From NCBI GenBank assembly GCA_964366335.1, contig CAYITQ010000001.1:41336-105335 (forward strand): a stretch of DNA of 64,000 nucleotides. The letters are read 5' to 3'. The position numbers were made by a program, and so were the translations under genes. The stretch comes from an uncultured Gammaproteobacteria bacterium. Its GTDB lineage: Bacteria; Patescibacteriota; Microgenomatia; CAZETR01; Amesbacteraceae. This document shows positions 29,389-60,947 of this stretch, in pieces (position 1 is the first letter of the stretch; the number at the start of each line of letters is the position of its first letter). The notes below the pieces were generated by a model that had not been told where the DNA came from, did no database searches, and saw only the letters and a program-made list of their open reading frames with translations.

Positions 29389-29393
29389 AAGAT

Positions 29394-32446: not shown

Positions 32447-34114
32447 ATGCATAAATATCGCTTGGCACTTACGAGCTCAATATTGATTATTTTGGTTTCC
32501 TTAATTTCATTTTGGAAAATAAATCAGATTTTTTTCCAACAAGACGAATGGCTTGGGCTAGGTGGGGCAATTTATAGACAAGAAACCTTAGGGACACTAG
32601 GAAGTATTTTCCAAGTTTTTAATTTTCAAAATAGAAATGAGTCTACTCGTTTTTTACCAATAACTTCAATAGCAAATCACTTTCTTTACAATAATTTTAG
32701 ATTAAATACTGGTGCTTATGGATTATTATCCCTGACGATTGTCATAATCTGCGCACTTTTGATTAATAGCATCGTTTACAAATTGACAAACTCCCATTTG
32801 ATTTCCACGATCACCTCTCTTTTATGGATAACCAATAATTTAGCTTATCAAGCCATTACTTGGATCGGTACTATGGTGCCTTCATTGCTTACAGTGCTGT
32901 TTTTTCTCTTAGGTTTATATTTTTTACTGGTTTATAACAAAAAAAAGAAAAGTTATTTATATGTGGTATCTATCATTTGTGTTACGCTATCTTTATTTTC
33001 CAAAGAATCCAGTGTTTTTTATTTAATAACCTATTCAATGGTCATATGCTTTTTCTTTAAAGAGGGATTTAACAAATTTAAAAAAATAAAACTAGTTGTA
33101 TTACTTTTTATTCCATTATTTATAGGTTTAATCTTTCCAAGGTTACTTTTCTCCCTATATAACCAAAATAATTTTTCCCCGTCAGTAGCCTCTGCCAATA
33201 AAGTAGAGATCGTCTATAACTTTTTCTTAATTCCTGCTAAGAGTTTGTTCCATGTCTACTTTCCTCAAAAAAAGATTTATGAGCTAACATATTTAGCCAA
33301 CAACATTCATTATTCAGCTCAAACAAATGGTTTTGTGGTGGAGAGTATTATCACAGACGCACTATCTTTGTTAATTGCTTTTTATTTTATGCTAATAATT
33401 TTTATTGTTATTTTATTGACTAAAATCGAACATCGGAAAATTATCCTTTTTTCTTTAATATCTTTTTTTGCTTCAACTTTACCATTTGTAATTTTTAAAA
33501 ACGATGCAGCTGTTTTAGAAAACAGATTTTATATTTTTCTTGCACTTTGGGCAAGTTTACTTTTAAGCTCAATTATTTTTGCCCTTTTTTCCAGATTTGG
33601 AAAATTCAGAAACATATTAATGATATCGGTATTGGGACCGATTATTTTTTATTATGTTTCTGGCATACATAAATCTCTGGCCCAGGATATATTAGTGGGC
33701 AACTATAGAAAAGATATTATAAATACAGTTTCAGAGATTAAATCAGAGCTTAAGAAAAATAATGTATTTTATTTTTATACTAATAATAACGGTTTTTACG
33801 AGTTTCAATCCGGCTTTGGGCAGACATTGGCAGTTTTTCTCTACGACAGTGGTAAGATACCCAAAGGGGTTTTGATTGATAAAGACTACTGGGATCCATC
33901 CTTTGAAGGTTTAAAAAGTTTTAATCAAGGTAAATTTGGTTATTTTATGACTTATACTAGATTAGTTGAGGCGCTTAAAAATAATAAAGATATAAACTTA
34001 GACTCGGTTTATAGTTTTTATTGGGATCCTCAAAAGCATACAGTAAAGAATGTTTCTGATGATATTAGAGAGAAGTTAAAAAAAGACACTACAAATGAAA
34101 AAACTTCTCTCTAA
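32447..34114 (+). CDS. GT-C-like polytopic membrane protein with a DE motif
   Basis: 555 aa, more than 10 TM helices. N-terminal loop NQIFFQQDEWLGLGGAIY (DE motif). Confidence 0.5.
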   Translation: MHKYRLALTSSILIILVSLISFWKINQIFFQQDEWLGLGGAIYRQETLGTLGSIFQVFNFQNRNESTRFLPITSIANHFLYNNFRLNTGAYGLLSLTIVIICALLINSIVYKLTNSHLISTITSLLWITNNLAYQAITWIGTMVPSLLTVLFFLLGLYFLLVYNKKKKSYLYVVSIICVTLSLFSKESSVFYLITYSMVICFFFKEGFNKFKKIKLVVLLFIPLFIGLIFPRLLFSLYNQNNFSPSVASANKVEIVYNFFLIPAKSLFHVYFPQKKIYELTYLANNIHYSAQTNGFVVESIITDALSLLIAFYFMLIIFIVILLTKIEHRKIILFSLISFFASTLPFVIFKNDAAVLENRFYIFLALWASLLLSSIIFALFSRFGKFRNILMISVLGPIIFYYVSGIHKSLAQDILVGNYRKDIINTVSEIKSELKKNNVFYFYTNNNGFYEFQSGFGQTLAVFLYDSGKIPKGVLIDKDYWDPSFEGLKSFNQGKFGYFMTYTRLVEALKNNKDINLDSVYSFYWDPQKHTVKNVSDDIREKLKKDTTNEKTSL

Positions 34115-37100
34115 ATTCAATGTATACCACATCGAGATACTTTTTTTGTTAATCGTGGGTTTAATCCCACTCTTGTGGTACAAGGTTGGTTACATTGGTT
34201 TGGGTCACGATATGGGTTTCCCCCTCGCCCCAGTAGGTCATTTTTTAGACAGACTTTATACATGGACAGATAGACTTGGTCCGTTCGGTTCAAATGCTGT
34301 ACAAGTTCTTCCAGGTGTGTTTATACATGGATTAGAGGCTTTGCTGTCATCTATTGGATTTTCACTGCTAACGGTTCAAAAAATAACTTATATCTTTTGG
34401 TTTATTCTTCCTGGAATTACCATGTATACACTTCTTCGTTACCTCCATCCAAACAAGGAAGATTATCCGATCAGAGTATCAGGTAGCATGTTTTACATGA
34501 TGAATCATTACCTTCTTCAAGCCTGGACTATCGCGGAAAGAACCAAGTTTTCAATTGTCGCAGCTCTGCCAATAGTTGTACTTTTAATAATTAAAGTATT
34601 ACACAAAAAAGAGTCTCCTGTAAAAAACTCAATACTTTTTGCTTTAACTTTATTTTTTCTAAATGGCGGGGAGGGCATTCCGCTATTAATTAGCTTATTT
34701 GTAGCGGTTATAACGACAATTATAACATACTTCTTTTTGTCGAACGAGAATTTTTGGCCTAAGGCAAAAAGGCTACTTATTTTTTCTTTTTTAGCTGCCT
34801 TATTCTGGATATTGTTAAGCGGCTACTGGCTTTATCCTTACTTTAAGTCTTATAGCCAAGCATTTGGACAAAGATCGGATGTAGCAGGGGGAACCGCGGG
34901 AGCTATTTCTTGGAGCCAGGGAATAAGCGCAAACACTAGTTGGATAAACCTGTTTAGGCTGAGGGGAATACCGGATTGGTATGCCAGTCCCGATCATCCA
35001 TACGCAAATGAGTTTTTCAAAAATCCACTATTATTGTTTTTAAACATTCTTTTTCCGGCAATAGCTTTAATTAGTCTTTTAAGTCCCAATAAAATAAAAA
35101 TTTACTTTTTAGGCTTGTTACTGATCTCAATTCCGCTTTCTGCAGGAAGTCATCCTCCCTTGGGAATACTTTACGATTACTTGCTGGTTAATGTGCCGGG
35201 TTTTATTATGTTTCGCTCTGGTTTTTTTAAATTTGGAATGATTATTTGGTTTGCCTATGCTTATTTGATCGCCGTAGGAGTCAAAGACACAATAGTCCGG
35301 TTAAAACAAATCCCCTTGGTTTTGCTTGGTGGATTTATAGTTTCACTTTTTATATATAATTATCCCTTTTTGTCAGGAGTTTTTTTCGATTATTCTAAAG
35401 GAAAATCTACAATGGTAAAGGTACCTGATTATATCTTTGAAGCGAAAAAAGAGCTTGATAGTAATAAATTTTCGACTAGAACTTTGTATTTACCAAATGC
35501 AGACATAAGGACTGAATATATAGAGTACGATTGGGACTATTTTAGTCTAAGTGAACTCACAGATATTATGGGGAGGAAGTCTTCAATAAGAAACGGTGTC
35601 TTAGCAAGACCCAACGAGAGAGATTTAATGGTTGGCGTCTTGTCAGAATACATTAAATTCGGAAACTCCAATTTAGTTAAACTTATAGGTGCTGACAGAG
35701 CCGTAGTGCAAAATGACTTTATTTCACCAGATTATGAAGGCAATCCTTTAAGCGGGATAAAAGAATCATTTAAGAAATCCAAGGATTTTACTTTTAAGAA
35801 TAGTTTAGGAAAATGGGATTTTTATGACTACAACAAGGATATTCTTCCTCAAATTTACTCTCCATCGACTGTTACATTTATTTCGTCTGATCAAAAAGAA
35901 TTAAGCTTAGTCGCAAATATGCCGGGGGCTTTAGATAGCAACGCTTTTTTGTGGTCTGACTCTCCGGAAGACAGCAATAAGAAAGAAATTTTCTCTAAGC
36001 TTATTATCCAAGCCCGATGTGCCGATTGTCCTCCTGTAGATAACTATCAAATATACTTCGCCACATCAAAGGTGTTAATACCCGGTACCGTTTTTTATCC
36101 GCTTGGTAAATTTGTAACTGACGCGAGAACACTCCTTGCTGGTAATCCAATTACTAGACTAGATATTAATTTGTCTACCTCTACAACTTTAATTTCTGAT
36201 CTGGGTTCCCTTCAAGCCAAAAGTGATGAAAAAGGGATAAAGGTAGCAACGGGAGATCTGGCTAAAAACTTAGAAGAAATAAAAAATAACTTAGAAGACA
36301 TTTCTGATCCGAAAATTAAAAAAGAGGTTCTCAAAAAAGTGCGTTTTTTCTTGTCGTTTTTTGTTTCTTATGAGACTCAGTGGGCAGTTGCTGCCCAGCC
36401 GGGACCGATAAAGTCAGACTTGGAAAGTCTTGAGACTGAATTGAGAAAGTCAGTGGCTGAAATTGAAGGAGAGACAGGATACCCCAAAGTAGAAAAGGAT
36501 GCTTTATTATATAAATACAGCCTTGACATTTCCCAAGCGGGTGATTACGATCTCTATCTCTACAATCCATCTTCCTTAAGCGATGGAATAACATTGAATG
36601 TTAATAACCGTATTTTTAGAGCACGAAAGCTTAATTCAAATTGGTACAAAATTACCAAAGTGCCTTTGGGGAATACTCCGACATTAATAGAGATTACAAA
36701 AACTCAAGCTTCTGAAACAAGACCAGTAATTTTTGTTGAGCTAGAGACGGGTGCTCCTGATTTAGGCTCACCGAATATTGAGTTTGTGGCCTTAAACCAA
36801 ACCAAGTATTTAGTGCAAGCAAAAGGAAGTGAACATTTTTTGTTGGGTTTTAACTCGCGTTTTGATCCAAATTGGAGTCTAAGAGAGATAAGTTCAAAAC
36901 TGGCAAATAAATATTTTGTGGGAGACAAAAGAATTTTCTTAAAGGGGAAAGTTATTGAATATGAAAGAGGCGATAAACATGTAATTACAGATTTAGTGTT
37001 TCCAAAGAGCAAATATAAACTAACACCATCGTTTCAGCTTAATGGCTTTTCAAATGGTTGGCTAGTAGATTCTAACGATGCTAATAGCGAAAAAACTTTT

Positions 37101-37211
37101 CTTTTAGAATATAATAACCAAAATGATTATTACAAAGCTCTCGCAGTGAGTCTTGCTACTCTCATTTTTATCTTAGGAATGTTAATATACTTAAATAATG
37201 AAACTACCTAA
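34095..37211 (+). CDS. giant GT-C-type membrane protein (YfhO/AftD-like): multi-TM N-domain plus large extracytoplasmic C-domain plus C-terminal TM anchor
   Basis: 1038 aa. N-terminal GHDMGFPLAP loop. About 13 TM helices in the first ~450 aa. C-terminal IEFVALNQTKYL...FNSRFDPNWS...VIEYERGDKH domain shared with 37198 and 49832. Final TM helix. Confidence 0.6.
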   Translation: MKKLLSKFNVYHIEILFLLIVGLIPLLWYKVGYIGLGHDMGFPLAPVGHFLDRLYTWTDRLGPFGSNAVQVLPGVFIHGLEALLSSIGFSLLTVQKITYIFWFILPGITMYTLLRYLHPNKEDYPIRVSGSMFYMMNHYLLQAWTIAERTKFSIVAALPIVVLLIIKVLHKKESPVKNSILFALTLFFLNGGEGIPLLISLFVAVITTIITYFFLSNENFWPKAKRLLIFSFLAALFWILLSGYWLYPYFKSYSQAFGQRSDVAGGTAGAISWSQGISANTSWINLFRLRGIPDWYASPDHPYANEFFKNPLLLFLNILFPAIALISLLSPNKIKIYFLGLLLISIPLSAGSHPPLGILYDYLLVNVPGFIMFRSGFFKFGMIIWFAYAYLIAVGVKDTIVRLKQIPLVLLGGFIVSLFIYNYPFLSGVFFDYSKGKSTMVKVPDYIFEAKKELDSNKFSTRTLYLPNADIRTEYIEYDWDYFSLSELTDIMGRKSSIRNGVLARPNERDLMVGVLSEYIKFGNSNLVKLIGADRAVVQNDFISPDYEGNPLSGIKESFKKSKDFTFKNSLGKWDFYDYNKDILPQIYSPSTVTFISSDQKELSLVANMPGALDSNAFLWSDSPEDSNKKEIFSKLIIQARCADCPPVDNYQIYFATSKVLIPGTVFYPLGKFVTDARTLLAGNPITRLDINLSTSTTLISDLGSLQAKSDEKGIKVATGDLAKNLEEIKNNLEDISDPKIKKEVLKKVRFFLSFFVSYETQWAVAAQPGPIKSDLESLETELRKSVAEIEGETGYPKVEKDALLYKYSLDISQAGDYDLYLYNPSSLSDGITLNVNNRIFRARKLNSNWYKITKVPLGNTPTLIEITKTQASETRPVIFVELETGAPDLGSPNIEFVALNQTKYLVQAKGSEHFLLGFNSRFDPNWSLREISSKLANKYFVGDKRIFLKGKVIEYERGDKHVITDLVFPKSKYKLTPSFQLNGFSNGWLVDSNDANSEKTFLLEYNNQNDYYKALAVSLATLIFILGMLIYLNNETT

Positions 37212-40200
37212 ATTCAATCGATACTGGTTGGAAATAATATTTATCCTTCTCGTGGGACTAGTGCCACTTTTGTGGTTTAAGGAGGGATATTTAGCTGCCG
37301 GCCATGATATGAGCTATCCATTAGCACCTATAGATTTTTGGCTTGATAGGTTATTTGTTTGGACAGATAGGATAGGAAGTTTTGGTTCAAATCAGACTGA
37401 TGCAATCCCTGGTATTTTTATACACGGACTGCAGGCACTTTTTTATTATGTTACAGGTTCATTACAACTAGCCCAAAAACTTGATTTTATTTTTTGGTTT
37501 GCCCTCCCGGGAATAACAATGTATATTTTACTTCGATCTCTCCACTCCAAAAAAGAAGAGTACATTATAAGAATATCGGGTTCTTTGTTCTATATGTTGA
37601 ACCACTATTTACTCCAAGGATGGATTATTGCTGAGATGTCAAAGTTTTCTATAGTTGCCGCCATTCCACTGATAGTACTTTTTACCGTGAATGTAATGTA
37701 TAAAGAGATGTCTATTATTAAGAACGCACTCCTTGTTGGATTTACTCTTTTTTTTCTCAATGGCGGAGCCGGAATTCCTTTGTGGGGTGGTTTGGCCATA
37801 GTCTGGATAACTACCATTGTGGTGTTGTTTATATTAAATCCTCGGCTTATATGGCACAAACTGCGCCGGGGACTGGTCTTTATTTTTCTTTCCACTCTTT
37901 TTATTGGTGTCCTCAACTGGTATTGGATTTATCCTTATGTGCAGTCCTTTAGCCAGAACTATACCACCAGAGTGGCATCCAGTGGTGGTAACGAAGGGGC
38001 AATTAGATGGAGTCAGGAAATAAGTAAAAACGCCAGTTTTGATAATTTAATCAAATTACAAAGTATTCCCGATTGGTACGACAACCCCGAACATCCTTAT
38101 GCTAATAATTTTTTTAACAACGACTTCTTAATCTTTCTAAGTGTGGTGATCCCCCTGGTTAGCTTTGTGGGTCTCTGGAGCAAGAAGAATGAACAAAGAC
38201 ACCAATTGGTGTATAAAGTGCTGGCTCTGGGAATTATCATAGTGGCCTTACCTTTTGTAGCGGGGAGTCATTTACCTACCGGTGTAGTCTACGACTTTCT
38301 GCTTAAGAATCTTCCCGGGTTTTCCATATTCCGTACTCCATTTTATAAATTTGCCATGGTTTTGTGGTTTGCCTATTCTTATTTATTTGGTGTCGGTCTA
38401 AAAAACATTATTGACACTATTAAAGTTCGTCAATTTTTTACCATCGGAATTTTTGGTGTTTCCCTAATAATGCTTGGTATCTATAATTATCCATTCTTTA
38501 CGGGGTCTTTTTTCAACTGGTCAAAAAAATACTCAACCATGGTCAAAGTACCTAGTTATATTTTCTCCGCGAAAGACCAGATAGACAGTAACAAATTCTC
38601 CACCCACACTCTTATTTTACCACAGCTTGACCCTAGAACTAAGTACGAGACTAATGATTGGAAATATTTTAGTCTCTCCACCATTCCCAGCATACTTACC
38701 CGCCGGCCGGTAGTAATCAATGATGCCACTCTTATAAATTGGGAAGACGTTTTGGTCAGTGCTGTGTATACTCAATTGCAAAAGAAAGGTGACTCTCAGC
38801 TGTTAGATTATACTGGCGTGGACACGGCAATTTGGAGAAATGACTTTTCTAGCCGTGATGACACACAGTATTCTATTAAAGCAAATAGAACCATCCTTGA
38901 TAACAATAAAAAGTTTACATTCCGAAAAAGAATTGGTCAATGGGATTTTTATGATATAGCCAGCGAAAACTTAAAGCCCTTAATATATTTTCCACAATCC
39001 GTTGTCTATATCAAATCCGAACCCGCATACCTGGCTTATATTGCCGATATTCCTAGTCTGGATTCTCTGGGTGATGCCTTTGCTTTGGCTGATCCGGTAA
39101 ACCCCATGGATATTATTAAGAACAAGATTTCACAATATGTGGTTCAGGCTTCGTGTATTAATTGTGATCTGAAAAAAACCGAAAGTGTGTCCATTATAAG
39201 TTCAAAGCCTCCCAGGATTATGCCGGGCGGCAAGTTGTATTGGCTTATTAGACTTAGGGAAAAGAATGTGAGAAAAAAGATTGTTGAGGTGCCAAAGTTG
39301 ATAGACTTTGATTTAGGTATCATGGCCAAAAATGCCGCAGCCTTGAAAGTGTTAATTGTAAACAAAAGCAAAGATAAAGCAGTTGAAAGCATAATAAATG
39401 ACTGGTATGCCCGTTTGGACAAAATCAAGTCAAACTATCTTTCAATTCAAGATCAAAGTTTAAAACAAGAAAAATCAAAAGATATTTATCGTTATTTGTG
39501 GTCTTTCGTTCTCGGTAGTCAGGAGTGGAAACATCTTGCAGAAAGCCCATCAACAGTCGAAAAACTGTCAGCTTTTGAAAATGATACCCGTTTGTATATT
39601 AACGAGTTGGGTTTGAAACCTGCTACGCTCCCGCCTTCTTTTGTCGAAAAAATGGTCTACAAAGTGACTATTCCTGTAGAGGGAAATTACCAAATCAGCC
39701 TCTATTCGGATCTTTTGACAAAAAGTAGCGTTGTCATTCTGGATGATAATCCAATCGGCATTAGTCGGTATTCCCCGGTCCGTAAATGGTTTCAGAGTGA
39801 GTTTATAAAACTTAGTGCGGGGGAACATACTCTTTCTTTGTCGAAATCCACGAAAAAACCTGAAGTCTATAATAATGTAGAATTGGAAGCTCCGTCTGCT
39901 AAATTAGTATGTTCTGACATTGATCTGGGTAATGTTGATCCAGAAAACACCTACACAATCCGATTCAATTATAGCAGCATTTCGGATCGGCCGCTTAATT
40001 TTCAAGCTCTTGAAAAGAGTGAGACCGCAACTGAATGGACTGTCAATAAAGTTTATCCAAATGTAAAGGAGTTATCAAAATCATATCAGGTCGATTTCAA
40101 ATATGAACCGGGAGCGCTTGCTGGGACCCTGTCTTTACGGTTCTGTATGGATGGATATTATTTATCACCAACATATGCCAAAGTCGAAGACTTGTCCATG

Positions 40201-40719
40201 GAAGAAGTCTCACCTGAACCGTTAGTGTTTATCACGTCTACGAAGAAGACTATTGCTCAGGATGCCCCCCCAATAGAGTTTGTGGCTCTAAATCAAACTA
40301 AGTATTTGATTAATTTGTCTAAAAACTCTAATGATTTTATCCTAAATTTTAACTCCCGCTTTGACCAGCAATGGAGAATTAGGGAAGTGGATACAATGAC
40401 AGCCAATAAGTTTTTTACCGGAGAAACTAAGGCCTACTTGAGTGGAAAAGTGATTGAATACGAAAGACAGGATAAGCATATTTTCACAGATAACCTTTTT
40501 CCCAGATTAACCAGATCGGAGTATGTTCCTCAATTTACTCTTAATGTTTTTAGTAATGCTTGGTTCTTAGAAGGAAATACTGACTCTGGTCCCAAGACCT
40601 ATCTTTTGGAATATATTTATCAAAATACTCTCTATAAAACAAGCATATTCAGTGGGGTAGCATTTGTATTATTGTTGGTCCTTTACTTTTGGATTAATAA
40701 ACATGAGAAATTTAATTAA
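37198..40719 (+). CDS. giant GT-C-type membrane protein, tandem paralog of 34095-37211
   Basis: 1173 aa. N-terminal ~120 aa about 60% identical to the upstream paralog (GHDMSYPLAP). Conserved C-terminal IEFVALNQTKYL...FNSRFDQQW...VIEYERQDKH. ATGA-coupled. Confidence 0.6.
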   Translation: MKLPKFNRYWLEIIFILLVGLVPLLWFKEGYLAAGHDMSYPLAPIDFWLDRLFVWTDRIGSFGSNQTDAIPGIFIHGLQALFYYVTGSLQLAQKLDFIFWFALPGITMYILLRSLHSKKEEYIIRISGSLFYMLNHYLLQGWIIAEMSKFSIVAAIPLIVLFTVNVMYKEMSIIKNALLVGFTLFFLNGGAGIPLWGGLAIVWITTIVVLFILNPRLIWHKLRRGLVFIFLSTLFIGVLNWYWIYPYVQSFSQNYTTRVASSGGNEGAIRWSQEISKNASFDNLIKLQSIPDWYDNPEHPYANNFFNNDFLIFLSVVIPLVSFVGLWSKKNEQRHQLVYKVLALGIIIVALPFVAGSHLPTGVVYDFLLKNLPGFSIFRTPFYKFAMVLWFAYSYLFGVGLKNIIDTIKVRQFFTIGIFGVSLIMLGIYNYPFFTGSFFNWSKKYSTMVKVPSYIFSAKDQIDSNKFSTHTLILPQLDPRTKYETNDWKYFSLSTIPSILTRRPVVINDATLINWEDVLVSAVYTQLQKKGDSQLLDYTGVDTAIWRNDFSSRDDTQYSIKANRTILDNNKKFTFRKRIGQWDFYDIASENLKPLIYFPQSVVYIKSEPAYLAYIADIPSLDSLGDAFALADPVNPMDIIKNKISQYVVQASCINCDLKKTESVSIISSKPPRIMPGGKLYWLIRLREKNVRKKIVEVPKLIDFDLGIMAKNAAALKVLIVNKSKDKAVESIINDWYARLDKIKSNYLSIQDQSLKQEKSKDIYRYLWSFVLGSQEWKHLAESPSTVEKLSAFENDTRLYINELGLKPATLPPSFVEKMVYKVTIPVEGNYQISLYSDLLTKSSVVILDDNPIGISRYSPVRKWFQSEFIKLSAGEHTLSLSKSTKKPEVYNNVELEAPSAKLVCSDIDLGNVDPENTYTIRFNYSSISDRPLNFQALEKSETATEWTVNKVYPNVKELSKSYQVDFKYEPGALAGTLSLRFCMDGYYLSPTYAKVEDLSMEEVSPEPLVFITSTKKTIAQDAPPIEFVALNQTKYLINLSKNSNDFILNFNSRFDQQWRIREVDTMTANKFFTGETKAYLSGKVIEYERQDKHIFTDNLFPRLTRSEYVPQFTLNVFSNAWFLEGNTDSGPKTYLLEYIYQNTLYKTSIFSGVAFVLLLVLYFWINKHEKFN

Positions 40720-41017
40720 AATCGCAATCAATTTGATAGCTAACGCTCCAAAACTTTCTTTGCTTATAATTTTTTATATTGCACTCAGAGACATTGCAAT
40801 TTTTATTCCTTATCTTAATTTATTTATCCAGGGTTTGGAAAATAGGCTCGCGATAGTGTGGCTATTGGCTTTAATCATATATAGATTTTCTCAAAACTCT
40901 ATCGTGGCTTGGATTCTAATTTTCTTGTTTTTGAGTATGTTTGGAATTCGCGTCGGTTTGATAATTTATACTTCCTCAATACTAATGTTCTTTAAGCATT
41001 TAAGGAGAATGAGATGA
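40706..41017 (+). CDS. small hypothetical membrane protein (~104 aa)
   Basis: ATG at 40706 inside the tail of the upstream gene, in a different frame. Three hydrophobic helices. Fills the gap and is coupled (ATGA) to the downstream GT2. Confidence 0.35.
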   Translation, partial: RNLIKIAINLIANAPKLSLLIIFYIALRDIAIFIPYLNLFIQGLENRLAIVWLLALIIYRFSQNSIVAWILIFLFLSMFGIRVGLIIYTSSILMFFKHLRRMR

Positions 41018-42750
41018 AAGATTTAATTTCAATAATTATTCCCACCAAAAATGCTGCAGGACATCTTAAGAATTTATTGCCTTCACTTGTTGGTCAAACT
41101 TATAAAGATTTTGAAGTAATCATAAATGATGACAAGGCTACGAGTGACGATACGAAAAGTTTATTAAAAAAGTTTGAAAACAAGATCAAAATTAAGTATG
41201 TCCATGAAAATGTCAGTATGGCGCAGGGAAGAAAAAGTGGCGCAAAACACACCGGCGGAAAATATCAGCTCCATCTTGATGCCGATATGTCTTTATCACC
41301 AAGGGTTTTAAAATTCTGTCTCAAAGAAATTCACAAAGGATATGATGCGTTAGTAATTCCTGAAATTTCATACGGAAAAGGATATTGGACTAAAGTAAAA
41401 GCTTTTGAAAGAAGCCTCTATGTGGGAGACAGCACAAGGGAATCAGCACGGTTTATTAAAAGTGCTGTTTATGAAAGTATCGGAGGACATAATCCCAAAA
41501 TGGTTTTGTCGGAAGATAAAGACTTAGACTTAAGAGTCCGAAAAGCCGGTTTTAGGGTGGGTAGAATCAACGAACCTATTTATCATAATGAAGGAAATTT
41601 AAGTCTAAAAAAGGATCTACAAAAAAAGTTTTTTTACGGCCAGACGGCTCATGTGTTTATAGCTGAAAACCCAAAACACGCCTTCAATCAGGCTAATTTA
41701 ATTTTCAGAGCTGCGTATTTTAGACATTGGAAGAAATTGTTAACTCATCCTGACTTATCACTGGGCATGTTTTTAATGAAAATACTGGAAACACTTGCCG
41801 CTCTTTGGGGTTTAATAACCACTATTCAAGTAATATTTACAAATAAGACTCTTGAAAATCTTAAGGATTATGAACCCATGAAGGAAAGTAGGGTGGAAAA
41901 AGGCTTAATATCAGTTATTGTTCCAGCCTTAAACGCATGTAAACATTTAGAAATACTATTAGTTTCGCTTGAAAAACAAACATACAAAAATTTTGAAGTT
42001 GTAATTAATGATGATAAAAAAACTACAGACGATACAAAAGAAGTATTAAAAAAATTTAGCAAAAAACTAAAAATTAAATACTTTCAGGAGAATATCAGTA
42101 TGGCACAAGGAAGAAGATCCGCTTCCATATCGGCTAAAGGTGAATACCTGTTTCATTTAGATGCTGATATGAAACTAGCTCCTCGAGTATTAGAGCATTG
42201 TTTTAAGAAAACAAGAGATTTTGACGCTCTTGTCATCCCTGAAGTCTCATATGGGGAGGGCTTTTGGGCGAAAGTAAAAATTTTTGAAAGAAGTATGTAT
42301 ATTGGTGACGATACGATAGAATCGGCCCGTTTTTTCAAGACCTCTGTTTACAGATCAGTTGGAGGGCATAATGAAAAAATGGTGCTTTCTGAAGATAAGG
42401 ACTTGGATTTAAGGGTAAGGAAGTCAGGCTTTAATGTTGGTCGAATAAGTAAACCAATATATCACAATGAAGGAAATTTTAGCATCCTTAATTCTATTAA
42501 GAAAAAGTTTTTTTACGGAAGGACTGCAAGTGTACTTATGCTGGCAAACCCGGCCTTTGCCTTAAAATATGGAAACATAGTTTTTAGACCGGCATTTTTT
42601 AGAAATTGGAGAAAACTTCTGTCCCACCCTATTTTAGCAAGTGGTGTTTTTTTAATGAAATCTCTTCAAACAATTGCGGGTCTTTTGGGGATGTTTACTT
42701 CCAAGGTCCCCTTTCTTAAAGAAGATATTAAAGTTGGTATATGGAAATGA
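41014..42750 (+). CDS. two-module family 2 glycosyltransferase (internal tandem duplication)
   Basis: Residues ~1-290 and ~296-578 are clear paralogs (ISIIIPTKNAAGHLKNLLPSLVGQTYKDFEVIINDDKATSDDTK vs ISVIVPALNACKHLEILLVSLEKQTYKNFEVVINDDKKTTDDTK, ...SEDKDLDLRVRK.GF.VGRI..PIYHNEG in both). Confidence 0.8.
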   Translation: MKDLISIIIPTKNAAGHLKNLLPSLVGQTYKDFEVIINDDKATSDDTKSLLKKFENKIKIKYVHENVSMAQGRKSGAKHTGGKYQLHLDADMSLSPRVLKFCLKEIHKGYDALVIPEISYGKGYWTKVKAFERSLYVGDSTRESARFIKSAVYESIGGHNPKMVLSEDKDLDLRVRKAGFRVGRINEPIYHNEGNLSLKKDLQKKFFYGQTAHVFIAENPKHAFNQANLIFRAAYFRHWKKLLTHPDLSLGMFLMKILETLAALWGLITTIQVIFTNKTLENLKDYEPMKESRVEKGLISVIVPALNACKHLEILLVSLEKQTYKNFEVVINDDKKTTDDTKEVLKKFSKKLKIKYFQENISMAQGRRSASISAKGEYLFHLDADMKLAPRVLEHCFKKTRDFDALVIPEVSYGEGFWAKVKIFERSMYIGDDTIESARFFKTSVYRSVGGHNEKMVLSEDKDLDLRVRKSGFNVGRISKPIYHNEGNFSILNSIKKKFFYGRTASVLMLANPAFALKYGNIVFRPAFFRNWRKLLSHPILASGVFLMKSLQTIAGLLGMFTSKVPFLKEDIKVGIWK

Positions 42751-43760
42751 CTTATCCTAAAGTTTCAATAATTGTCGTAAATTTTAACCAAAAGCAGTTT
42801 ACTTTAAATTGTTTGAAGTCACTGGGGAAAATAACCTATCCCAATTACGAGGTGATTGTTGTCGATAATAATTCTCAAGATGGATCCGTAGGGGCAATTA
42901 CAAAAATGTTTCCAAAAGTCAGGCAAGTTTTGAACAAAAGCAATTCCGGTTATGTGGGTGGAAATAATGCCGGTATCAGACAGGCAAAAGGAAAATATTT
43001 ATTGATTTTAAATAATGATACCTTAGTAACTCCTGGTTTTATTGAACCATTGGTGGCAGATCTCGAAAAGGATCACAGTTTGGGAATAGTTCAAAGTAAG
43101 ATATTTATCATGGATAATCCAAAACAACTGGATAATGTAGCATCTTATTTGACGAATATAGGTTTCTTGTTTCATATAGGATATTTGAATAAAGATAAAC
43201 CAGAATATCAAAAATATCAAGAAATATTCGCTGCTAAAGGAGCTTGTATGATGGTCAGAAAAGCGGTTTTTAAATTAGGTGCTTTTGATGAGGAATATTG
43301 GTGTTATTTTGAGGAGTCGGATCTTTGTTGGCGGGCTTGGGTCATGGGGTATCATGTTGCCTTTGAACCCAGGTCAATAATTTACCACAAAATGGGAGCA
43401 ACCAGCGCAACCATGAGAAGTGCGTTCATTCATTATCACTCGTTCAAAAACAGAATAAGAACGATTATCAAGAATGCATCTTTGACAACTTTACTCTGGA
43501 TACTTCCTGTTCATATTACAACTTGTGTAGTATTGTCAGCTTATTTTTTCTTATCAGGACAGACTGGTGGATCAAAAGCGATACTTAAAGCAATTTGGTG
43601 GAATATATTAACCATTGGTGATACATTAGAAAAACGAAGTATTATTCAAAAAAGACGCAAGCTGGATGATAATGAGATTTTTGACAAGGTTATGAAAAAT
43701 CCGCCATTATCATTTTATTTACATCATCTTTCGTTAGTTAGAGAAAATTTAACAAAATGA
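42741..43760 (+). CDS. family 2 glycosyltransferase
   Basis: VSIIVVNFNQKQFTLNCLKSL...VIVVDNNSQDGS. C-terminal TM helix. Confidence 0.8.
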   Translation: MEMTYPKVSIIVVNFNQKQFTLNCLKSLGKITYPNYEVIVVDNNSQDGSVGAITKMFPKVRQVLNKSNSGYVGGNNAGIRQAKGKYLLILNNDTLVTPGFIEPLVADLEKDHSLGIVQSKIFIMDNPKQLDNVASYLTNIGFLFHIGYLNKDKPEYQKYQEIFAAKGACMMVRKAVFKLGAFDEEYWCYFEESDLCWRAWVMGYHVAFEPRSIIYHKMGATSATMRSAFIHYHSFKNRIRTIIKNASLTTLLWILPVHITTCVVLSAYFFLSGQTGGSKAILKAIWWNILTIGDTLEKRSIIQKRRKLDDNEIFDKVMKNPPLSFYLHHLSLVRENLTK

Positions 43761-44404: not shown

Positions 44405-45412
44405 TTATTTTTCCCAACCATTAGGTCGGTTAGTGTACCAACACATCAAGGCTTTGACAGAATCTTCTATACTCCTTTCAGGCCTCCACCCTAGGAGTTT
44501 TTTTGCCTTGTGGTTTGAAGCCGTTATTTTGGCATCCTCTCCCAACCGAGAAACACCTTTATTAATTTTTAATTTGGATCCGGTAATATTTTGTACTATC
44601 TTGACTATTTCTAGAACAGAACTACCCTTATTTGTACCTAGATTGATAATTTGATTTCCTTTCCCTTCCAATAATAATTCCAGGGCTTTTAAATGAGCTA
44701 TGTTTAAGTCCACCACATTCACATAATCACGTATGGGCGTGTTATCTTGAGTATTAACGTGAGAACAAGTCAAGAAAAAAGGTTCCAACCCCATTGCTCC
44801 ACGGACGGAATTTTGCATCATATGAATAGATGGTTTTTTAGAATCACCAAAGTCACCATTATCACTGGCTCCACAAACATTAAAGTATCTCAAAATCATA
44901 TAATTAATACCCAGTGACTTGCTGAACCATTGGACAATTTGTTCAGACATTAATTTAGATTGACCATATGGATTACTGGGAACAGTGGGGTGATTTTCGT
45001 CAATGGGTACCCGCGTAGCCTTATCATAAACTGTACATGACGAAGAAAACACTATGTTTTTAATTTTAAACTTAACCATCTGGTTTAACAGATTGTTAGT
45101 TCCGGCAGTATTGACAGAAAAATATTTATATGGACTGAGCATTGATTCACTTACAGAGCAAACTCCAGCATAATGTATAACTGCTTTAATATTCTGCTCT
45201 TTATTAAACACATCAGAAAGATCTTCACGAATGTCCCGGGCATAAAAACGGATTTTTTTACTACCGTACCGCTTCATAAGTAACTCAAGAGGCTGACGAT
45301 AACCAGAAGAAAAATCGTCTACTACTACCAATTCGTACCCACCATCCAATAATTGTTTACAAGCATTTGAACCAATATATCCTCCACCTCCGGTAACTAA
45401 AATTTTTATCAT
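44405..45412 (-). CDS. galE: NAD-dependent epimerase/dehydratase, UDP-hexose 4-epimerase (GalE)-like
   Basis: ILVTGGGGYIGSNACKQLL Rossmann motif. Catalytic YGQSK (YxxxK). 335 aa extended-SDR length. The stop abuts the convergent methyltransferase stop with 0 nt spacing. Confidence 0.8.
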   Translation of the reverse strand: MIKILVTGGGGYIGSNACKQLLDGGYELVVVDDFSSGYRQPLELLMKRYGSKKIRFYARDIREDLSDVFNKEQNIKAVIHYAGVCSVSESMLSPYKYFSVNTAGTNNLLNQMVKFKIKNIVFSSSCTVYDKATRVPIDENHPTVPSNPYGQSKLMSEQIVQWFSKSLGINYMILRYFNVCGASDNGDFGDSKKPSIHMMQNSVRGAMGLEPFFLTCSHVNTQDNTPIRDYVNVVDLNIAHLKALELLLEGKGNQIINLGTNKGSSVLEIVKIVQNITGSKLKINKGVSRLGEDAKITASNHKAKKLLGWRPERSIEDSVKALMCWYTNRPNGWEK

Positions 45413-46086: not shown

Positions 46087-46102
46087 AAGGAATATGGATT
46101 AA

Positions 46103-47050: not shown

Positions 47051-47051
47051 C

Positions 47052-47822: not shown

Positions 47823-47862
47823 CGCGTTATTTTCACATAAAATCGTGGTAGAATCAACAGCA

Positions 47863-48579
47863 ATGGCTAGGCCTAAACTGACGATTTTCTTTCCTTATCT
47901 CAACGATTGGGGAACAGTAGGAAGTATGGTCTTATTGGCGTCTGCTACAGCCAAGAAAATTACCGACAACTTTGAAATATTGGTAGTTGATGACGGAAGC
48001 GATATTTCATCAGCAAAGGCCTTAGATCAAATTAAACCCCTAGTACCGCAATTGAGGGTGATTCGTCACTCGAGGAATACCGGATATGGGGGAGCTTTAC
48101 GTGCGGGTTTCACGCATGCTCGTGGTGAATTAATTTTCTATACTGATTGTGACGCCCAATATGACGTCAGGGAATTGCTATCTTTATATCGTGCCTATAA
48201 ATCCGGAATCGGAATGGTCAACGGTTATAAGCTAGAAAGACATGATCCTTGGTACCGGATAGTTTTGGGATTGGTTTATCAGCATTTAGTGAAAGTTGCT
48301 TTTAGATTACCAATCATTGACACCGATTGTGATTTTAGATTGATTGAAAAAAAAGTGTTTGACAAAGTAAGATTATTTGAAACAACGGGAACAATTTGTG
48401 TTGAACTCGTCAAAAAAATTAGCCATTTCGGTTTTAAGATTGTTGAGGTACCTGTAAATCATTATGATCGCCCGAGTGGCTTTAGTCAGTTTTTCAATCT
48501 TCACAGACTGTATAATACTTTTGTAAACTTAGGAAAGTTATGGTGGAAATTAAACGTATTGCAGGATTATTTGCACTGA
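47863..48579 (+). CDS. family 2 glycosyltransferase (DPM1/GtrB-like)
   Basis: LTIFFPYLNDWGTVGS...ILVVDDGSDISSAK...DCDAQYD. ATG at 47863 (the ORF track starts at a GTG at 47845). TGgTAGAAT extended -10-like element at 47846-47854. Confidence 0.65.
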   Translation: MARPKLTIFFPYLNDWGTVGSMVLLASATAKKITDNFEILVVDDGSDISSAKALDQIKPLVPQLRVIRHSRNTGYGGALRAGFTHARGELIFYTDCDAQYDVRELLSLYRAYKSGIGMVNGYKLERHDPWYRIVLGLVYQHLVKVAFRLPIIDTDCDFRLIEKKVFDKVRLFETTGTICVELVKKISHFGFKIVEVPVNHYDRPSGFSQFFNLHRLYNTFVNLGKLWWKLNVLQDYLH

Positions 48580-49835
48580 TTATCGGGGTGGGTTTGCTGT
48601 TGCGACAAATATCTTTCTTTCCTTATCCCGAGATGCTTACTGAAACTTATTTTTTGTCCAAGGGGATGCTGCCCTATGTTCAAATAAACGATCAGCATTT
48701 CCCGGGTTTGTCTTTATTACCTGTCAATTTGAGAACATTGGGGTTTGATAATATAGAGAAATTGCGGTGGTTACATTTGGGTCTGATTGGATTTACAACT
48801 CTAATATTATATAAATTGATAGGGAAATTACGTTGGATTGTTCTTTTTCTAGTCTTTTTTCTGCTTTGGGAGGGGAACACTCTATGGGTAGATTCTTTTG
48901 TGACGCCTCTGGTTTTATTGGTATTTTATGGGTTATGGTCAAAAGGGTCATTTAAATCCGTACAAAATATATTTTTAACAGGAACTTTATTGGGTATAGT
49001 GTTGGTATTTAAACAACATGCTCTTATAATTTGTGTGGCAGTCGCAGTCTGGGTTTTGGATCAAAAAGTTTCCTGGAAGTATTGGCTGGGTTTTGTGATC
49101 GGTGGAATATTGCCGATGAGTCTTGTAGGAATATATTATTATCAATTGGGAGTATGGCCAGATTTTTGGTTTTGGACAGTGGTTCACAATTTGACTGGTT
49201 ACACATCTTTGGAAGGAAGAATTCCAGGATTGGGGGAATTGGCAAGGTTTTCGCTCTTAGCAGTCCCCGCTGCTTTTGGGCTGCAAGGGTCGGCTGGTTT
49301 GTTTATTCTGGCTAGTCTAATATATTTAATTCCGCGCTTTGGTCTGATTCATGCTCAAATAGCCCTACCGTTATTAATTTTTTTACTAAGTTTTAAACCT
49401 CGGCTCTATTGGCCAATAATGGGATTAGCATTGTTGTTAATGGCTCGTATCTTTGCCAAAGAAATTCCAGGAAAAGTCCTTTTTTATGATCAATCGGCAA
49501 TGCTTACAGTAGAGTATGTCGAGGAAAGGGTTGACAAATCCCGCCCTATTTATGTCTATGGAGTAAATGACAATATTTATCATCTAACTAATACTCTCCC
49601 CCCCAATAGATTCTGGATAGAACTTCTGCGAGGAAATATAATCCCTGGCGTCGAAGAACGGTTGATACAAACTCTAAAAATAGATCCGCCACAATTTGTA
49701 TTGGTAGATAGACAAGCGAGTATTGATGGAAAAAAAGTGTCAGAATTTACGCCACAAATATGGCGATATTTACAAATGAACTTTATTTTTAAAGAAAAGT
49801 TATCTAATGATGTCGAAGTTTGGTATCCGATATGA
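48540..49835 (+). CDS. polytopic membrane protein (possible GT-C-like)
   Basis: 431 aa, about 11 TM helices. C-terminal soluble ~100 aa. Confidence 0.45.
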   Translation: MVEIKRIAGLFALIIGVGLLLRQISFFPYPEMLTETYFLSKGMLPYVQINDQHFPGLSLLPVNLRTLGFDNIEKLRWLHLGLIGFTTLILYKLIGKLRWIVLFLVFFLLWEGNTLWVDSFVTPLVLLVFYGLWSKGSFKSVQNIFLTGTLLGIVLVFKQHALIICVAVAVWVLDQKVSWKYWLGFVIGGILPMSLVGIYYYQLGVWPDFWFWTVVHNLTGYTSLEGRIPGLGELARFSLLAVPAAFGLQGSAGLFILASLIYLIPRFGLIHAQIALPLLIFLLSFKPRLYWPIMGLALLLMARIFAKEIPGKVLFYDQSAMLTVEYVEERVDKSRPIYVYGVNDNIYHLTNTLPPNRFWIELLRGNIIPGVEERLIQTLKIDPPQFVLVDRQASIDGKKVSEFTPQIWRYLQMNFIFKEKLSNDVEVWYPI

Positions 49836-52618
49836 AAGTTAAATTAATTTGGTTTGGAATAATGGCACCTATTTTGACATTTGGAGCAATATTGCTGGCC
49901 ACCGGGCACAGTGGTCGTGCAGATCAAATATTTAATATTTCAATGTCGGTCATATTAATAACAATAATCCTACGCTTGTTTAGCCAAACAAAGTTAGATA
50001 ATATTTCTATCGAAAAACAAAACGTTCTAATTTGGCCCTTGTTAGCTGTAGTGTTTTTGATCGTGTTCAAATCTTTTTTCTTTTCATCTTTTGCTAATTT
50101 GGGTAATGATTCCAATTTTGTTTCTCCTTCGCTTCTTAAAAATATGTCAATTATGCCGCAGACCTGGGAATCGGAGCTCGGAGGAGTGGACTTGGGTCAC
50201 AATCAGGTGGTTAATATGTGGATGCAACCGCTCTGGATTTTTATTTCGGGTTTAGCCAGGCTTGGAGTGATATACCCGCTATTGGTTAAAGGGTTAATGA
50301 CAATTCAAATATTGATTGGATCTTTTGGTATATATCATTTGTTCAAAAAACTAAATATGGCCAGTTGGACTATACCCATAGGGGTAATATTTTATTTTCT
50401 CAATACCTATTATTTAGTTAATGTCGATGGAGGGTTGATATTTCTTTCTTTTGCGTACGCGTGCTTTCCTGGAAGTCTATATTTATTCATAAAACTTATT
50501 GAAAATAATACATTTAAAAATTGGTTGCTTTTTAGCTTTTGGGTAGTTATGGTATCTTTTTTTGATATTCGAAGTACAGTTTTAACATATGTGACAACTT
50601 TTATTTGGATAATTATTGTAAAGAAGTATCGTGGTCTACTTTTGCTTTTGGGGGTAGGATTGTTTTTAATTACAAGTCACTTTTATTGGTTGTTGCCAGC
50701 GTTAAAGACGGGCGTATCGTTGCCAACATCTTATGTATCCAATAATAGTGTTGAGCAATTTAGCTTCTTTTCTTCTGGTCACCTGTTGTTTGTGTCTCAA
50801 CCCCATTGGTATTCCAATGTTTTTGGAGACATTCAAATTCCCAGGTGGTACTTTGTGGGCATTCCTTTGTTGATTGTACTGGCTTTGGGGTTTGCAAAAG
50901 TGACTCAAAAATATAAATTGTTCATATGTTTGACGATCATTGGGCTGTTTTTGATGAAAGGTGGTCAACTTTATCTCTGGTTATACAAATATTTACCAGG
51001 ATTTGTATTCTTTCGTGATCCATCTAAATTTAGTCCGCTATTGACTTTGGGTTATGCCGGTCTGATATGTATGGCACTCGATATTTTGGGAAAAAGATTA
51101 CCCAAATTTAAAAACCTACTTTTACTCAGCGCAGGCGTCTATTTTTTCGCCATGGTTAGTCCTGTTTATACAAATCGTACTACTGGGGCGTTTGTACGCT
51201 CACCCTCAGAGGTTGATTACGAAAAGTTCTCTCAAACGATCAAACAAAAAGACTTTTCTAGGGTACTTTGGTTGCCTACCAAACCTCCGCAGGCAGTTGT
51301 GGATTTGTCACCAGTCTGGACTGAGGCAGGATGGTTATTGGCAAAAAGACCTTTTCTTTCAGCTATCGATGGGACTTATGAACTATATAATTTTGTACGG
51401 GCCTCCGAATCAGCGAGCTTATTTGATGTGACGGGCATTAAATATCTCTTGTATCCGCAGTCAGACCAGCGTAAACACATCCTCAAACCGGATGAGAAAG
51501 AATATTATCAATGGCAATATGATTGGTTTAAATCACAAAACTGGTTAAAGGACATTTCACCATTTGAAGGTTTGGGGGCTTTTGAGGTGGCAACAGTGTC
51601 AGGAAAGTTTTACCAGCCAAAAGACTGGTTATGGGTTGTCGGTCCCGATGACACATATTCACAACTATCCAAATTATTCAACTTCAGATTGGCTGATATA
51701 GGAGTCACCCATCTTAACAATTTTACTCCTAATTTAACAAAATCGGATGGATATCTATTCTTTAATAAAGTTGGTTTTTTGGATTTAGTAATGACCCAGG
51801 TAGAGAAAAAGAATCTAATCGGTCTTTATCCTTTTGTGTCTCCAACAGCCGACGGTAGGAAAGAATGGTGGGGAAGAGATTTAGGCAATTTTCTCTTCGT
51901 GAAAAATTATCTCAGAGATCACTATGAAGTAAATAACAATGACTATGACTTAGAAATGGGTTATGTAATAGCCGAGGGAGAGAAAACTTTACAAATAAAT
52001 CACAATTTTTCGAAAGGACATATATTTGCTAGGATACTTCAGAGTCGAGCGGGAGGTAATTTAGAATTTGTTCTTAATAATAAACAGACGACATTTACCA
52101 CTATTTCAGATAATGAGGTGTTGGTGTGGAAGGACCTCGGGGTATATCCGGAAATAACAAAAATTGAAATAAAAAGCATAGGATTAATAAATATGATCAA
52201 TGCTCTGGCAATTATTCCAGAATCAGAATATGAGCAATTGATAACAAGTGCCAAATCAGTTGTATCTACATCAAAAGTCATCACAGACCTAAAAAGTCTG
52301 TCAGGGACTATTTTCAACTCACCTGAAATACCTTATTCTAAGATTAGCCAAACGGAATATCGAATCGAAGTTCAAAATGCACCAACATGGGTTGTGTTTT
52401 CGGAGTCATACGATCCCAAATGGCAAATAAATGCGCCTAAAAGTTCTCCAATACCGGCTTATGATATGTTGAATGCATTTTGGGTCGAAAAACCAGGCTC
52501 GTACCGTATATTCTATACTCCGCAAATATGGGTCAAGCGGGGTCTGGGAATAACAGCTGGAATATTTTTGCTATCAGCGTTTGTTTTATTGTGGAGGTAT
52601 AAAAATGGAAAAATCTGA
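49832..52618 (+). CDS. giant YfhO/AftD-like GT-C-type membrane protein (third member)
   Basis: About 930 aa. Multi-TM N-domain. C-terminal domain with FSESYDPKWQ (compare FNSRFDPNWS / FNSRFDQQW in 34095/37198). Final TM anchor. Confidence 0.55.
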   Translation: MKVKLIWFGIMAPILTFGAILLATGHSGRADQIFNISMSVILITIILRLFSQTKLDNISIEKQNVLIWPLLAVVFLIVFKSFFFSSFANLGNDSNFVSPSLLKNMSIMPQTWESELGGVDLGHNQVVNMWMQPLWIFISGLARLGVIYPLLVKGLMTIQILIGSFGIYHLFKKLNMASWTIPIGVIFYFLNTYYLVNVDGGLIFLSFAYACFPGSLYLFIKLIENNTFKNWLLFSFWVVMVSFFDIRSTVLTYVTTFIWIIIVKKYRGLLLLLGVGLFLITSHFYWLLPALKTGVSLPTSYVSNNSVEQFSFFSSGHLLFVSQPHWYSNVFGDIQIPRWYFVGIPLLIVLALGFAKVTQKYKLFICLTIIGLFLMKGGQLYLWLYKYLPGFVFFRDPSKFSPLLTLGYAGLICMALDILGKRLPKFKNLLLLSAGVYFFAMVSPVYTNRTTGAFVRSPSEVDYEKFSQTIKQKDFSRVLWLPTKPPQAVVDLSPVWTEAGWLLAKRPFLSAIDGTYELYNFVRASESASLFDVTGIKYLLYPQSDQRKHILKPDEKEYYQWQYDWFKSQNWLKDISPFEGLGAFEVATVSGKFYQPKDWLWVVGPDDTYSQLSKLFNFRLADIGVTHLNNFTPNLTKSDGYLFFNKVGFLDLVMTQVEKKNLIGLYPFVSPTADGRKEWWGRDLGNFLFVKNYLRDHYEVNNNDYDLEMGYVIAEGEKTLQINHNFSKGHIFARILQSRAGGNLEFVLNNKQTTFTTISDNEVLVWKDLGVYPEITKIEIKSIGLINMINALAIIPESEYEQLITSAKSVVSTSKVITDLKSLSGTIFNSPEIPYSKISQTEYRIEVQNAPTWVVFSESYDPKWQINAPKSSPIPAYDMLNAFWVEKPGSYRIFYTPQIWVKRGLGITAGIFLLSAFVLLWRYKNGKI

Positions 52619-60946: not shown

Positions 60947-60947
60947 T

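Follow-up and report, generated by a model that had tools for sequence, protein, structure and literature searches.

AftD is an essential mycobacterial arabinan enzyme that helps to build the arabinan of the cell wall, and mycobacterial arabinan, Pseudomonas pilin and some O antigens are the settings in which lipid-linked pentofuranose chemistry has so far been found. Bacteria of the candidate phyla radiation (CPR, or Patescibacteria) are uncultured, host-dependent and ultra-small, and to our knowledge almost nothing is known of their cell-surface chemistry. Here, we describe three giant membrane proteins encoded in a 64,000-nucleotide stretch of DNA from such a bacterium (assembly GCA_964366335.1, contig CAYITQ010000001.1, positions 41,336 to 105,335 of the forward strand; below, this whole stretch is called the window and all positions are counted along it). 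Gene A (34095..37211, 1038 amino acids (aa)), gene B (37198..40719, 1173 aa) and gene C (49832..52618, 928 aa from its ATG, the open reading frame (ORF) itself opening at 49820) all lie on the + strand, with the positions and sizes given in an initial annotation made from the sequence alone. We propose that the three are integral-membrane AftD-like GT-C glycosyltransferases, and we consider it probable that they work in the manner set out below.

The closest described system is AftD of Mycobacterium abscessus and M. tuberculosis (PF11847; PDB 6W98, 6WBX, 6WBY), in which a GT-C core with a conserved aspartate (Asp) in the first outer loop is followed by an exported alpha/beta GT-C domain, by beta-sandwiches of the carbohydrate-binding module (CBM) type and by a return of the chain into the membrane. 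The same order of parts is found here. Mutagenesis of AftD identified K39 and D41 of the first outer loop, along with E251, K361 and D474, as essential residues around the active site, and besides transmembrane (TM) helix 12 the enzyme has a TM13-16 bundle that binds acyl carrier protein (bioRxiv 10.1101/2019.12.22.885152). The YfhO family (PF09586), whose members include Bacillus subtilis YfhO and Listeria GtlB of lipoteichoic acid glycosylation, shares with A, B and C an N-terminal GT-C core, an exported domain, a final TM anchor and a homologous C-terminal module. The arabinosyltransferases EmbA, EmbB and EmbC (GT53) are likewise large GT-Cs with exported CBM domains, acting as paralogous pairs on a cell-wall glycan. 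Lastly, three-component pentofuranose systems provide a precedent for lipid-linked pentofuranose donors (Kelly et al. 2024, PMC11127046), that of Citrobacter youngae comprising ORF15 (PPPRS-PRP), ORF14 (a MATE flippase) and ORF12 (GT136).

As the initial annotation had suggested, A and B are tandem paralogs, with 41% identity over essentially their full length and not in the C-terminus alone (BLASTP E = 0). Their reading frames overlap by 14 nt, and each translation contains its N-terminal motif, GHDMGFPLAP in A and GHDMSYPLAP in B. Gene C had been credited with a different N-terminal core. This description is refuted by comparison of a profile of 46 A/B relatives with one of 28 C relatives, which align from N- to C-terminus over 854 columns (hhalign probability 100%, E 3.7e-54), making C a distant full-length homolog of A and B. 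In the joint alignment the two families conserve the same positions, namely the Asp, W..P, P-x-W and PGFxxFR-x4-KF, and the PGFxxFR region is also where A and C find one another directly (BLASTP E 1e-5). By predicted structure and hydropathy, C has two additional N-terminal TM helices; the topology is kept and the Asp loop stays outside the membrane.

The link to AftD is seen most readily in the relatives of A. PF11847 (GT-C_AftD, formerly DUF3367) has a gathering score of 26 bits and is precomputed on many of the 186 relatives of A. In a direct scan, a relative (P0002) that is 85% identical to A scored 36.5 bits over residues 50-577. Across the eight A/B relatives scanned, scores ranged from 24.6 to 42.9 bits and seven exceeded the cut-off; among them were 42.9 (P0055), 42.4 (P0068), 32.8 (P0036) and, just below the cut-off, 24.6 (P0095). 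One CPR relative is already named "DUF3367 domain-containing protein" by NCBI. In the C family the PF11847 scores of relatives reach at most 18.3 bits, which is below the cut-off, and nine representatives of that family gave at best sub-threshold matches to AftD, PTPS_related or DUF6541.

Structure prediction leads to the same family. AlphaFold2 models of A and C, built on the alignments of their relatives, reached a predicted local distance difference test (pLDDT) score of 88 and a predicted template modelling (pTM) score of 0.86 for A, and 86.9 and 0.82 for C. A GT-C fold was recovered, as the initial annotation had expected; AftD came first for C, and nothing pointed to a transporter or a protease. 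The three best Foldseek hits with the C model were all AftD entries (E 5e-13 to 2e-10), and the next fold was STT3 (1.7e-4). Among the solved structures compared, which included AftD, STT3 and Pmt4 and did not include YfhO, AftD was the nearest to the GT-C fold of A and C: for A it gave the highest Z and the longest alignment (694 versus 457 residues), and for C the longest alignment (616 residues) at Z 17.7. For C, the Z values of Pmt4 (18.4) and STT3B (18.2) were slightly above that of AftD, as might be expected if A, B and C were protein glycosyltransferases of the oligosaccharyltransferase (STT3/PglB/AglB) or PMT kind that decorate S-layer, pilin or other surface proteins and do not lengthen a polysaccharide, and the abundance of PMT_2-type GT-C genes in the window would also suit such a role. 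We judge it improbable. AftD leads the Foldseek ranking for C by eight orders of magnitude in E and has the longest alignments for both A and C as well as the highest Z for A; none of the WWD, WWDYG or W.D[YF] motifs is present in A, B or C, and the similarity of fold is generic to GT-Cs. Moreover, the Pfam matches of the relatives are to GT-C_AftD and not to STT3 or PMT, and the CBM-like domains point to a glycan as acceptor.

Several results count against the AftD assignment and have to be set beside this evidence. Scans of A, B and C against Pfam and NCBIfam returned nothing significant (the weak MmpA match of C has 22.6 bits against a cut-off of 210), and PF11847 itself had no match in the three at E <= 1. 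PDB sequence searches with A, C, the 46-sequence profile and relative P0068 brought up a CBM and helical bundles and neither AftD nor any further GT-C. Because there is no direct Pfam, NCBIfam or PDB sequence match, the link to AftD is drawn through relatives, from profiles and from predicted structure, and the structural alignments show 13-14% identity. Furthermore, each of A, B and C closes with one TM anchor where AftD has TM12 and the TM13-16 bundle. Taken with the profile and model evidence, we nevertheless regard the predicted fold and the assignment to AftD-like GT-C transferases as solid.

The layout proposed in the initial annotation, a membrane core followed by a large exported part and one C-terminal TM helix, is borne out by hydropathy and by the predicted structures. 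In A the core has about 11-13 helices and extends to approximately residue 427, and the exported part comprises some 580 residues in A and some 705 in B. It begins in A with the mixed alpha/beta GT-C soluble domain, predicted to be extracytoplasmic (residues ~428-640; 35376..36014, +), and, after a CxxC loop and a five-helix bundle insert that is weakly DUF5667-like (residues 668-794; 36096..36476, +), continues with a CBM-like beta-sandwich whose strands are visible in the model (residues 805-884; 36507..36746, +). The shared C-terminal beta-sandwich module (residues 894-1006) and TM anchor (1007-1037) complete the protein (36774..37205, +). B is predicted to carry an extra CBM-like beta-sandwich (approximately residues 900-1018; 39895..40251, +) that is absent from A and appears as a gap in the A/B alignment. 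At the positions of this extra sandwich the family profile matched the CBM of a hyaluronate lyase (4d0q, E 0.0018). The C-terminal module and TM anchor of B follow (residues 1019-1169; 40252..40704, +), the module hidden Markov model (HMM) matching at about 1018-1168 (E 4.5e-48) and the TM helix spanning 1148-1166. Among the relatives, the commonest form is the B-type of about 1180 aa. C shows the same AftD-type order, with a CBM6/35/36-like beta-sandwich (residues 711-795; 51962..52216, +) ahead of its C-terminal module (835-895) and TM anchor (898-925; together 52334..52606, +).

The CxxC motif of A, C642-A-D-C645 (36018..36029, +), lies in an exported loop that the model predicts with low confidence. 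Its two cysteines are the only ones in A and are invariant in 46 of 46 relatives. The counterpart in B reads CINC (C653-C656; 39154-39165, +), and C-family proteins lack the motif. In A and B the pair might form a disulfide or serve as a redox or metal site. Neither this invariant CxxC nor the DUF5667-like five-helix bundle of A and B has been described for AftD.

Two groups of residues are conserved in both families. In A the first extracytoplasmic loop holds G37-H38-D39 (34203..34211, +), with D39 as the candidate catalytic or cation-binding Asp; the equivalent in B is G35-H36-D37 (37300-37308, +). In C the corresponding residue is D93 of a G-N-D sequence in the loop after the third helix (50108..50110, +), which falls in the alignment column of D39. 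The initial annotation had called for a check on its conservation: D39/D37 is invariant in all 46 A/B relatives and D93 is present in 96% of the C relatives. By their position in the loop, D39 and D93 would correspond to D41 of AftD. A second motif, P368-G-F-x-x-F-R374-x4-K379-F380 of A (35196..35234, +), corresponds to P389-G-F-V-F-F-R395-D-P-S-K399-F400 of C (50996..51031, +). Neither R374 and K379 in the A/B family nor R395 and K399 in the C family, which share the same alignment columns, show any variation, and we suggest the two pairs as candidate ligands of the donor phosphate.

These residues also bear on how the proteins might share their work. In 47 of 73 genome loci, AftD-like genes stand in tandem on the same strand, most often with a B-like gene ahead of a C-like one, and GT-C heterodimers are known in EmbA-EmbB and Pmt1-Pmt2 (PDB 7bvc, 6p2r). 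One member of each pair might, on these grounds, be a pseudo-enzyme that serves as a non-catalytic scaffold or acceptor-binding subunit. Yet none of the residues conserved in the two families is lost from A, B or C, the loop Asp and the R/K motif being among those kept. This argues that all three are active, and we hold a non-catalytic member to be very improbable.

The C-terminal module is common to A, B and C, as the initial annotation had claimed. Aligned alone, the modules of the two families match with hhalign probability 99.5% (E 2.4e-23), the A/B modules carrying an insertion of about 43 residues relative to that of C, and among all ORFs of the window the module HMMs match only these three proteins. 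In its detail the motif NGFSN.W holds for A; in B the sequence is NVFSNAW. The C-module HMM also matches residues 751-852 of relative P0318 (E 2.2e-12), and the same stretch passes PF09586 (29.2 bits against a cut-off of 28.5) at profile positions 755-835, the last 80 of the YfhO model. By this homology the terminal beta-sandwich and anchor are of YfhO type. The wider description of the proteins as YfhO-like thus stands for the C-terminal module and not for the whole protein, since neither A, B and C nor the eight relatives match PF09586 at E <= 1. P0318 (1541 aa) is itself a natural fusion: its first half is YfhO-positive and has a module and anchor of its own, its second half belongs to the C family, and this arrangement fits the idea that such enzymes work in pairs.

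Given this module, could A, B and C be enzymes of the YfhO kind, which would transfer single hexose or N-acetylhexosamine side residues from a C55-phosphate-sugar to a polymer resembling teichoic acid, neither using a pentofuranose donor nor polymerising? The layout fits, the C-terminal sandwich and anchor are homologous to a Pfam-YfhO-positive C-terminus, and C lies behind an ArnC/PgfS-like GT2, the classic partner of CsbB/GtrB type and an arrangement known from three-component glycosylation. In addition, the UbiA gene discussed below is missing from most A/B-family loci. Against this, relatives match GT-C_AftD, PF09586 is matched by none of A, B, C and the eight relatives, and the conserved neighbours of A and B in this lineage are DPPRS-like UbiA and PHP genes. 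We therefore see a YfhO-type role for the three as unlikely. Such a side-chain role differs from the one we propose mainly in donor and processivity, and is less improbable for C than for A and B. The exported region is also larger than that of YfhO and includes CBM-like and helical domains.

The accurate label for these proteins is "AftD-like with a YfhO-type C-terminal module". As divergent members of the AftD-like GT-Cs, or sisters to them, they fall within a known kind and do not make a new kind of system. What is new lies in variations of the domains, namely the helical bundle, the CxxC, the YfhO-type single anchor and the conserved tandem pairing. The last two, along with the CPR host, also set them apart from AftD. 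In the library of papers searched, none dealt with AftD-like or DUF3367 proteins of CPR. Hypothetical proteins thereby gain a testable annotation, with a candidate catalytic Asp, an R/K motif and candidate donors. The C family adds to this in number. A word-index search had suggested a rare family, with no more than 28 relatives of C, all of them lacking Pfam domains; this was overturned by an exhaustive profile search that returned 18,275, 9,838 and 3,640 cluster representatives at E cut-offs (<=) of 1e-3, 1e-10 and 1e-30, respectively. By these profile matches, C belongs to a large family, with thousands of 50%-identity clusters in metagenomes, that is yet without a Pfam model.

What might the donor be? 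Upstream of A lies a gene for a UbiA-family protein (30004..30888, +) that is closest to decaprenyl-phosphate phosphoribosyltransferase (DPPRS/PPPRS). Its best PDB match is the M. tuberculosis DPPRS 8j8j (E 1e-14), with the N-x-x-x-D-x-x-x-D, HP.K..RPI..G and KRY.EL stretches aligned, and we regard it as a candidate for the enzyme that makes a lipid-linked pentofuranose donor. It is followed by a PHP phosphoesterase fused to an S-adenosylmethionine (SAM) methyltransferase (30894..32435, +; Pfam PHP, PHP_C and Methyltransf_23), which is a candidate 5-phosphate phosphatase for polyprenyl-phosphate-ribose-5-phosphate and possibly one of a new type. In all five long metagenome loci with a UbiA of at least 44% identity, the PHP gene comes about 60 nt after UbiA and is followed by the 555-aa GT-C gene described below and by AftD-like genes. 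A DPPRS-like UbiA gene close to an AftD-like gene recalls the mycobacterial decaprenyl-phosphate-arabinose (DPA) pathway, and the presence of UbiA-type phosphoribosyltransferase-like, phosphoesterase and GT-C genes in one operon recalls C. youngae. In the three-component systems a lipid-linked pentofuranose is made and then transferred outside the cytoplasm; here the genes may follow the same sequence of steps. Since the UbiA, PHP and AftD-like operon mirrors the mycobacterial DPPRS/phosphatase/AftD logic and the systems of PMC11127046, we propose polyprenyl-phosphate-ribofuranose or a derivative, made by the UbiA and PHP proteins, as the donor of A and B, a tentative assignment to which we would give somewhat short of an even chance.

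The differences from these precedents, and the spread of the genes, limit that assignment. The three best NCBIfam models for the UbiA protein are all DPPRS, yet all fall below their equivalog cut-offs (NF008977, 91.5 bits against 234), and its motif reads N-Q-x-x-D-x-x-x-D, with Q in place of the second residue of N-D-x-x-D. UbiA lies within 10 kb in only 4 of 75 A/B loci, and we have rejected it as a general companion of the A/B family. UbiA relatives of less than 42% identity have no A/B/C-like neighbour, since neither the A/B nor the C profile detects their large multi-TM neighbours, and the link with UbiA and PHP holds in a single lineage. Unlike the mycobacterial pathway, no DprE1 or DprE2 was found among the window ORFs scanned. 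Unlike the C. youngae system, no MATE or SMR flippase was recognised: the window held none of the MATE, SMR or GtrA types, and no recognised donor flippase stands beside A and B. All of these points weaken the case for a lipid-linked pentofuranose donor. The phosphatase candidate also differs, being a PHP-methyltransferase fusion and neither a HAD protein, as in ORF15, nor the unrelated Rv3807c type (no HAD or PAP2 phosphatase was found in the window), for which it may substitute, and the GT-Cs, AftD-like in every test made, are tandem giants in the place that GT136 has there.

For C, which lies in an operon separate from that of A and B, the neighbourhood suggests a different donor. Two genes upstream is a GT2 of the polyprenyl-phosphate-sugar synthase type, resembling ArnC, PgfS and dolichyl-phosphate hexose transferases (47845..48579, +); it matches Pfam GT2, and its best NCBIfam matches are of these three types, all below their cut-offs. 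On this neighbourhood, C probably uses a polyprenyl-phosphate-hexose made by this protein. Between the two, immediately before C and sharing 4 nt with it, is the gene of a 431-aa multi-TM protein with a soluble tail of about 130 aa, as seen from sequence and hydropathy (48540..49835, +); it has no family match and is probably a small GT-C.

A second GT2 (42741-43760), relatives of which lie near A/B homologs in 51 loci, was considered as a donor synthase and rejected, its best PDB and NCBIfam matches being chondroitin synthase, GalT1 and PgaC and not the GtrB/ArnC types. The GalE-like short-chain dehydrogenase/reductase (SDR; 44405-45412) passes the GalE equivalog cut-off and is most simply a UDP-hexose epimerase. 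It may instead have an ORF13-like role on a lipid-linked pentose. The 104-aa protein encoded directly after B (40703..41017, +) has 3-4 TM helices by hydropathy of its translation and no family match. A similar ORF of about 104-107 aa follows B in other loci (L001 16652-16966, L003 16664-16987, L004 16750-17073), and from size and topology the protein is a candidate for a small GtrA/SMR-like lipid-sugar flippase.

In light of A, B and C being AftD-like, how might they act? Homology, fold, conserved residues and synteny are the observations from which we infer catalysis, donor, acceptor and a polymerising or branching role. From family and context, the three may polymerise or branch a wall-glycan-like polymer, as the initial annotation had suggested. 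At the outer face of the membrane, each protein would take a sugar from a polyprenyl-phosphate-linked donor, as the family suggests, and add it to a growing cell-surface glycan that would be held by the beta-sandwich domains. A and B would work in one operon with the PMT_2-like GT-C encoded upstream, such tandem pairs being the rule in related CPR genomes. A more daring version of this scheme is that the tandem pairs (A and B here; B-like then C-like in most Microgenomates) form heteromeric GT-C complexes, like EmbA-EmbB or Pmt1-Pmt2, with the PMT_2-like GT-C and, in this lineage, polymerise or branch a ribofuranose-containing and possibly O-methylated glycan of the cell envelope, with polyprenyl-phosphate-ribofuranose supplied by UbiA and a new PHP-type phosphatase. 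In this full form we find it rather unlikely; if true, it would place an arabinan-like furanan pathway in ultra-small CPR bacteria. Should only the UbiA operon link hold, lipid-linked pentofuranose chemistry would extend to CPR, with a new type of phosphatase, and we see this possible pathway as a lead worth following. As cell-surface glycan builders of some kind, A, B and C are credible candidates.

Directly upstream of A is the gene for a 555-aa multi-TM protein, a PMT_2/ArnT-like GT-C (32447..34114, +). The protein itself has no Pfam match, and its relatives carry PF13231 (PMT_2), some with a C-terminal discoidin domain. A homolog lies 0-105 nt upstream of an A/B homolog in at least 13 loci, distant ones included, and the gene order of the window is kept in relatives of 67-79% identity. 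Two genes, one nucleotidyltransferase-like (NTP_transf_5) and one small and P-loop kinase-like (28738-30014), accompany the 555-aa GT-C and the AftD-like gene even where UbiA is lacking (L005, L006, L008). The methyltransferase fused to the PHP domain and five further methyltransferase genes nearby (43757, 45409-, 46103-, 47052-, 52581) hint at methylated sugars.

The window as a whole is a glycosylation island, with at least 12 GT-C genes and many GT2 and GT4 genes, a Wzx-type flippase (20490-21779), the GalE-like epimerase and seven SAM methyltransferase domains. Hence one CPR bacterium devotes at least 12 GT-C genes to surface glycans, three giants related to AftD among them. Those recognised by family include GT87-like genes (starting at 51 and 8038), PMT_2 genes (9245, 12351, 14518, 16020 and 27233), a PTPS_related gene (10825) and a PIG-V-like gene (19354), and three further multi-TM proteins that match no family (6488, 48540 and 58043) are probably GT-Cs too. 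The density of GT-C genes is unusually high in 51-28765, 48540-49835 and 58043-59416. Inside the island, between GT4 genes, are a C39 peptidase-like gene that is also Guanylate_cyc_2-like and a gene with a Bro-N domain (60332-61754).

The host is an uncultured groundwater bacterium of the CPR. Identical genes are found on contigs from Hainich groundwater filter fractions of 0.1 and 0.2 um, and related loci come from Levy-, Woese-, Gottesman-, Roizman-, Davies- and Dojkabacteria, Parcubacteria and Saccharimonadales, all of them CPR/Patescibacteria. Many GenBank third-party annotation (TPA) records of metagenome-assembled genomes (MAGs) are titled "uncultured Gammaproteobacteria", and one "archaeon", though by content and relatives their loci are clearly CPR/Microgenomates (L003, L004, L007, L012 and others); the record titles of such MAGs are an unreliable guide to taxonomy.

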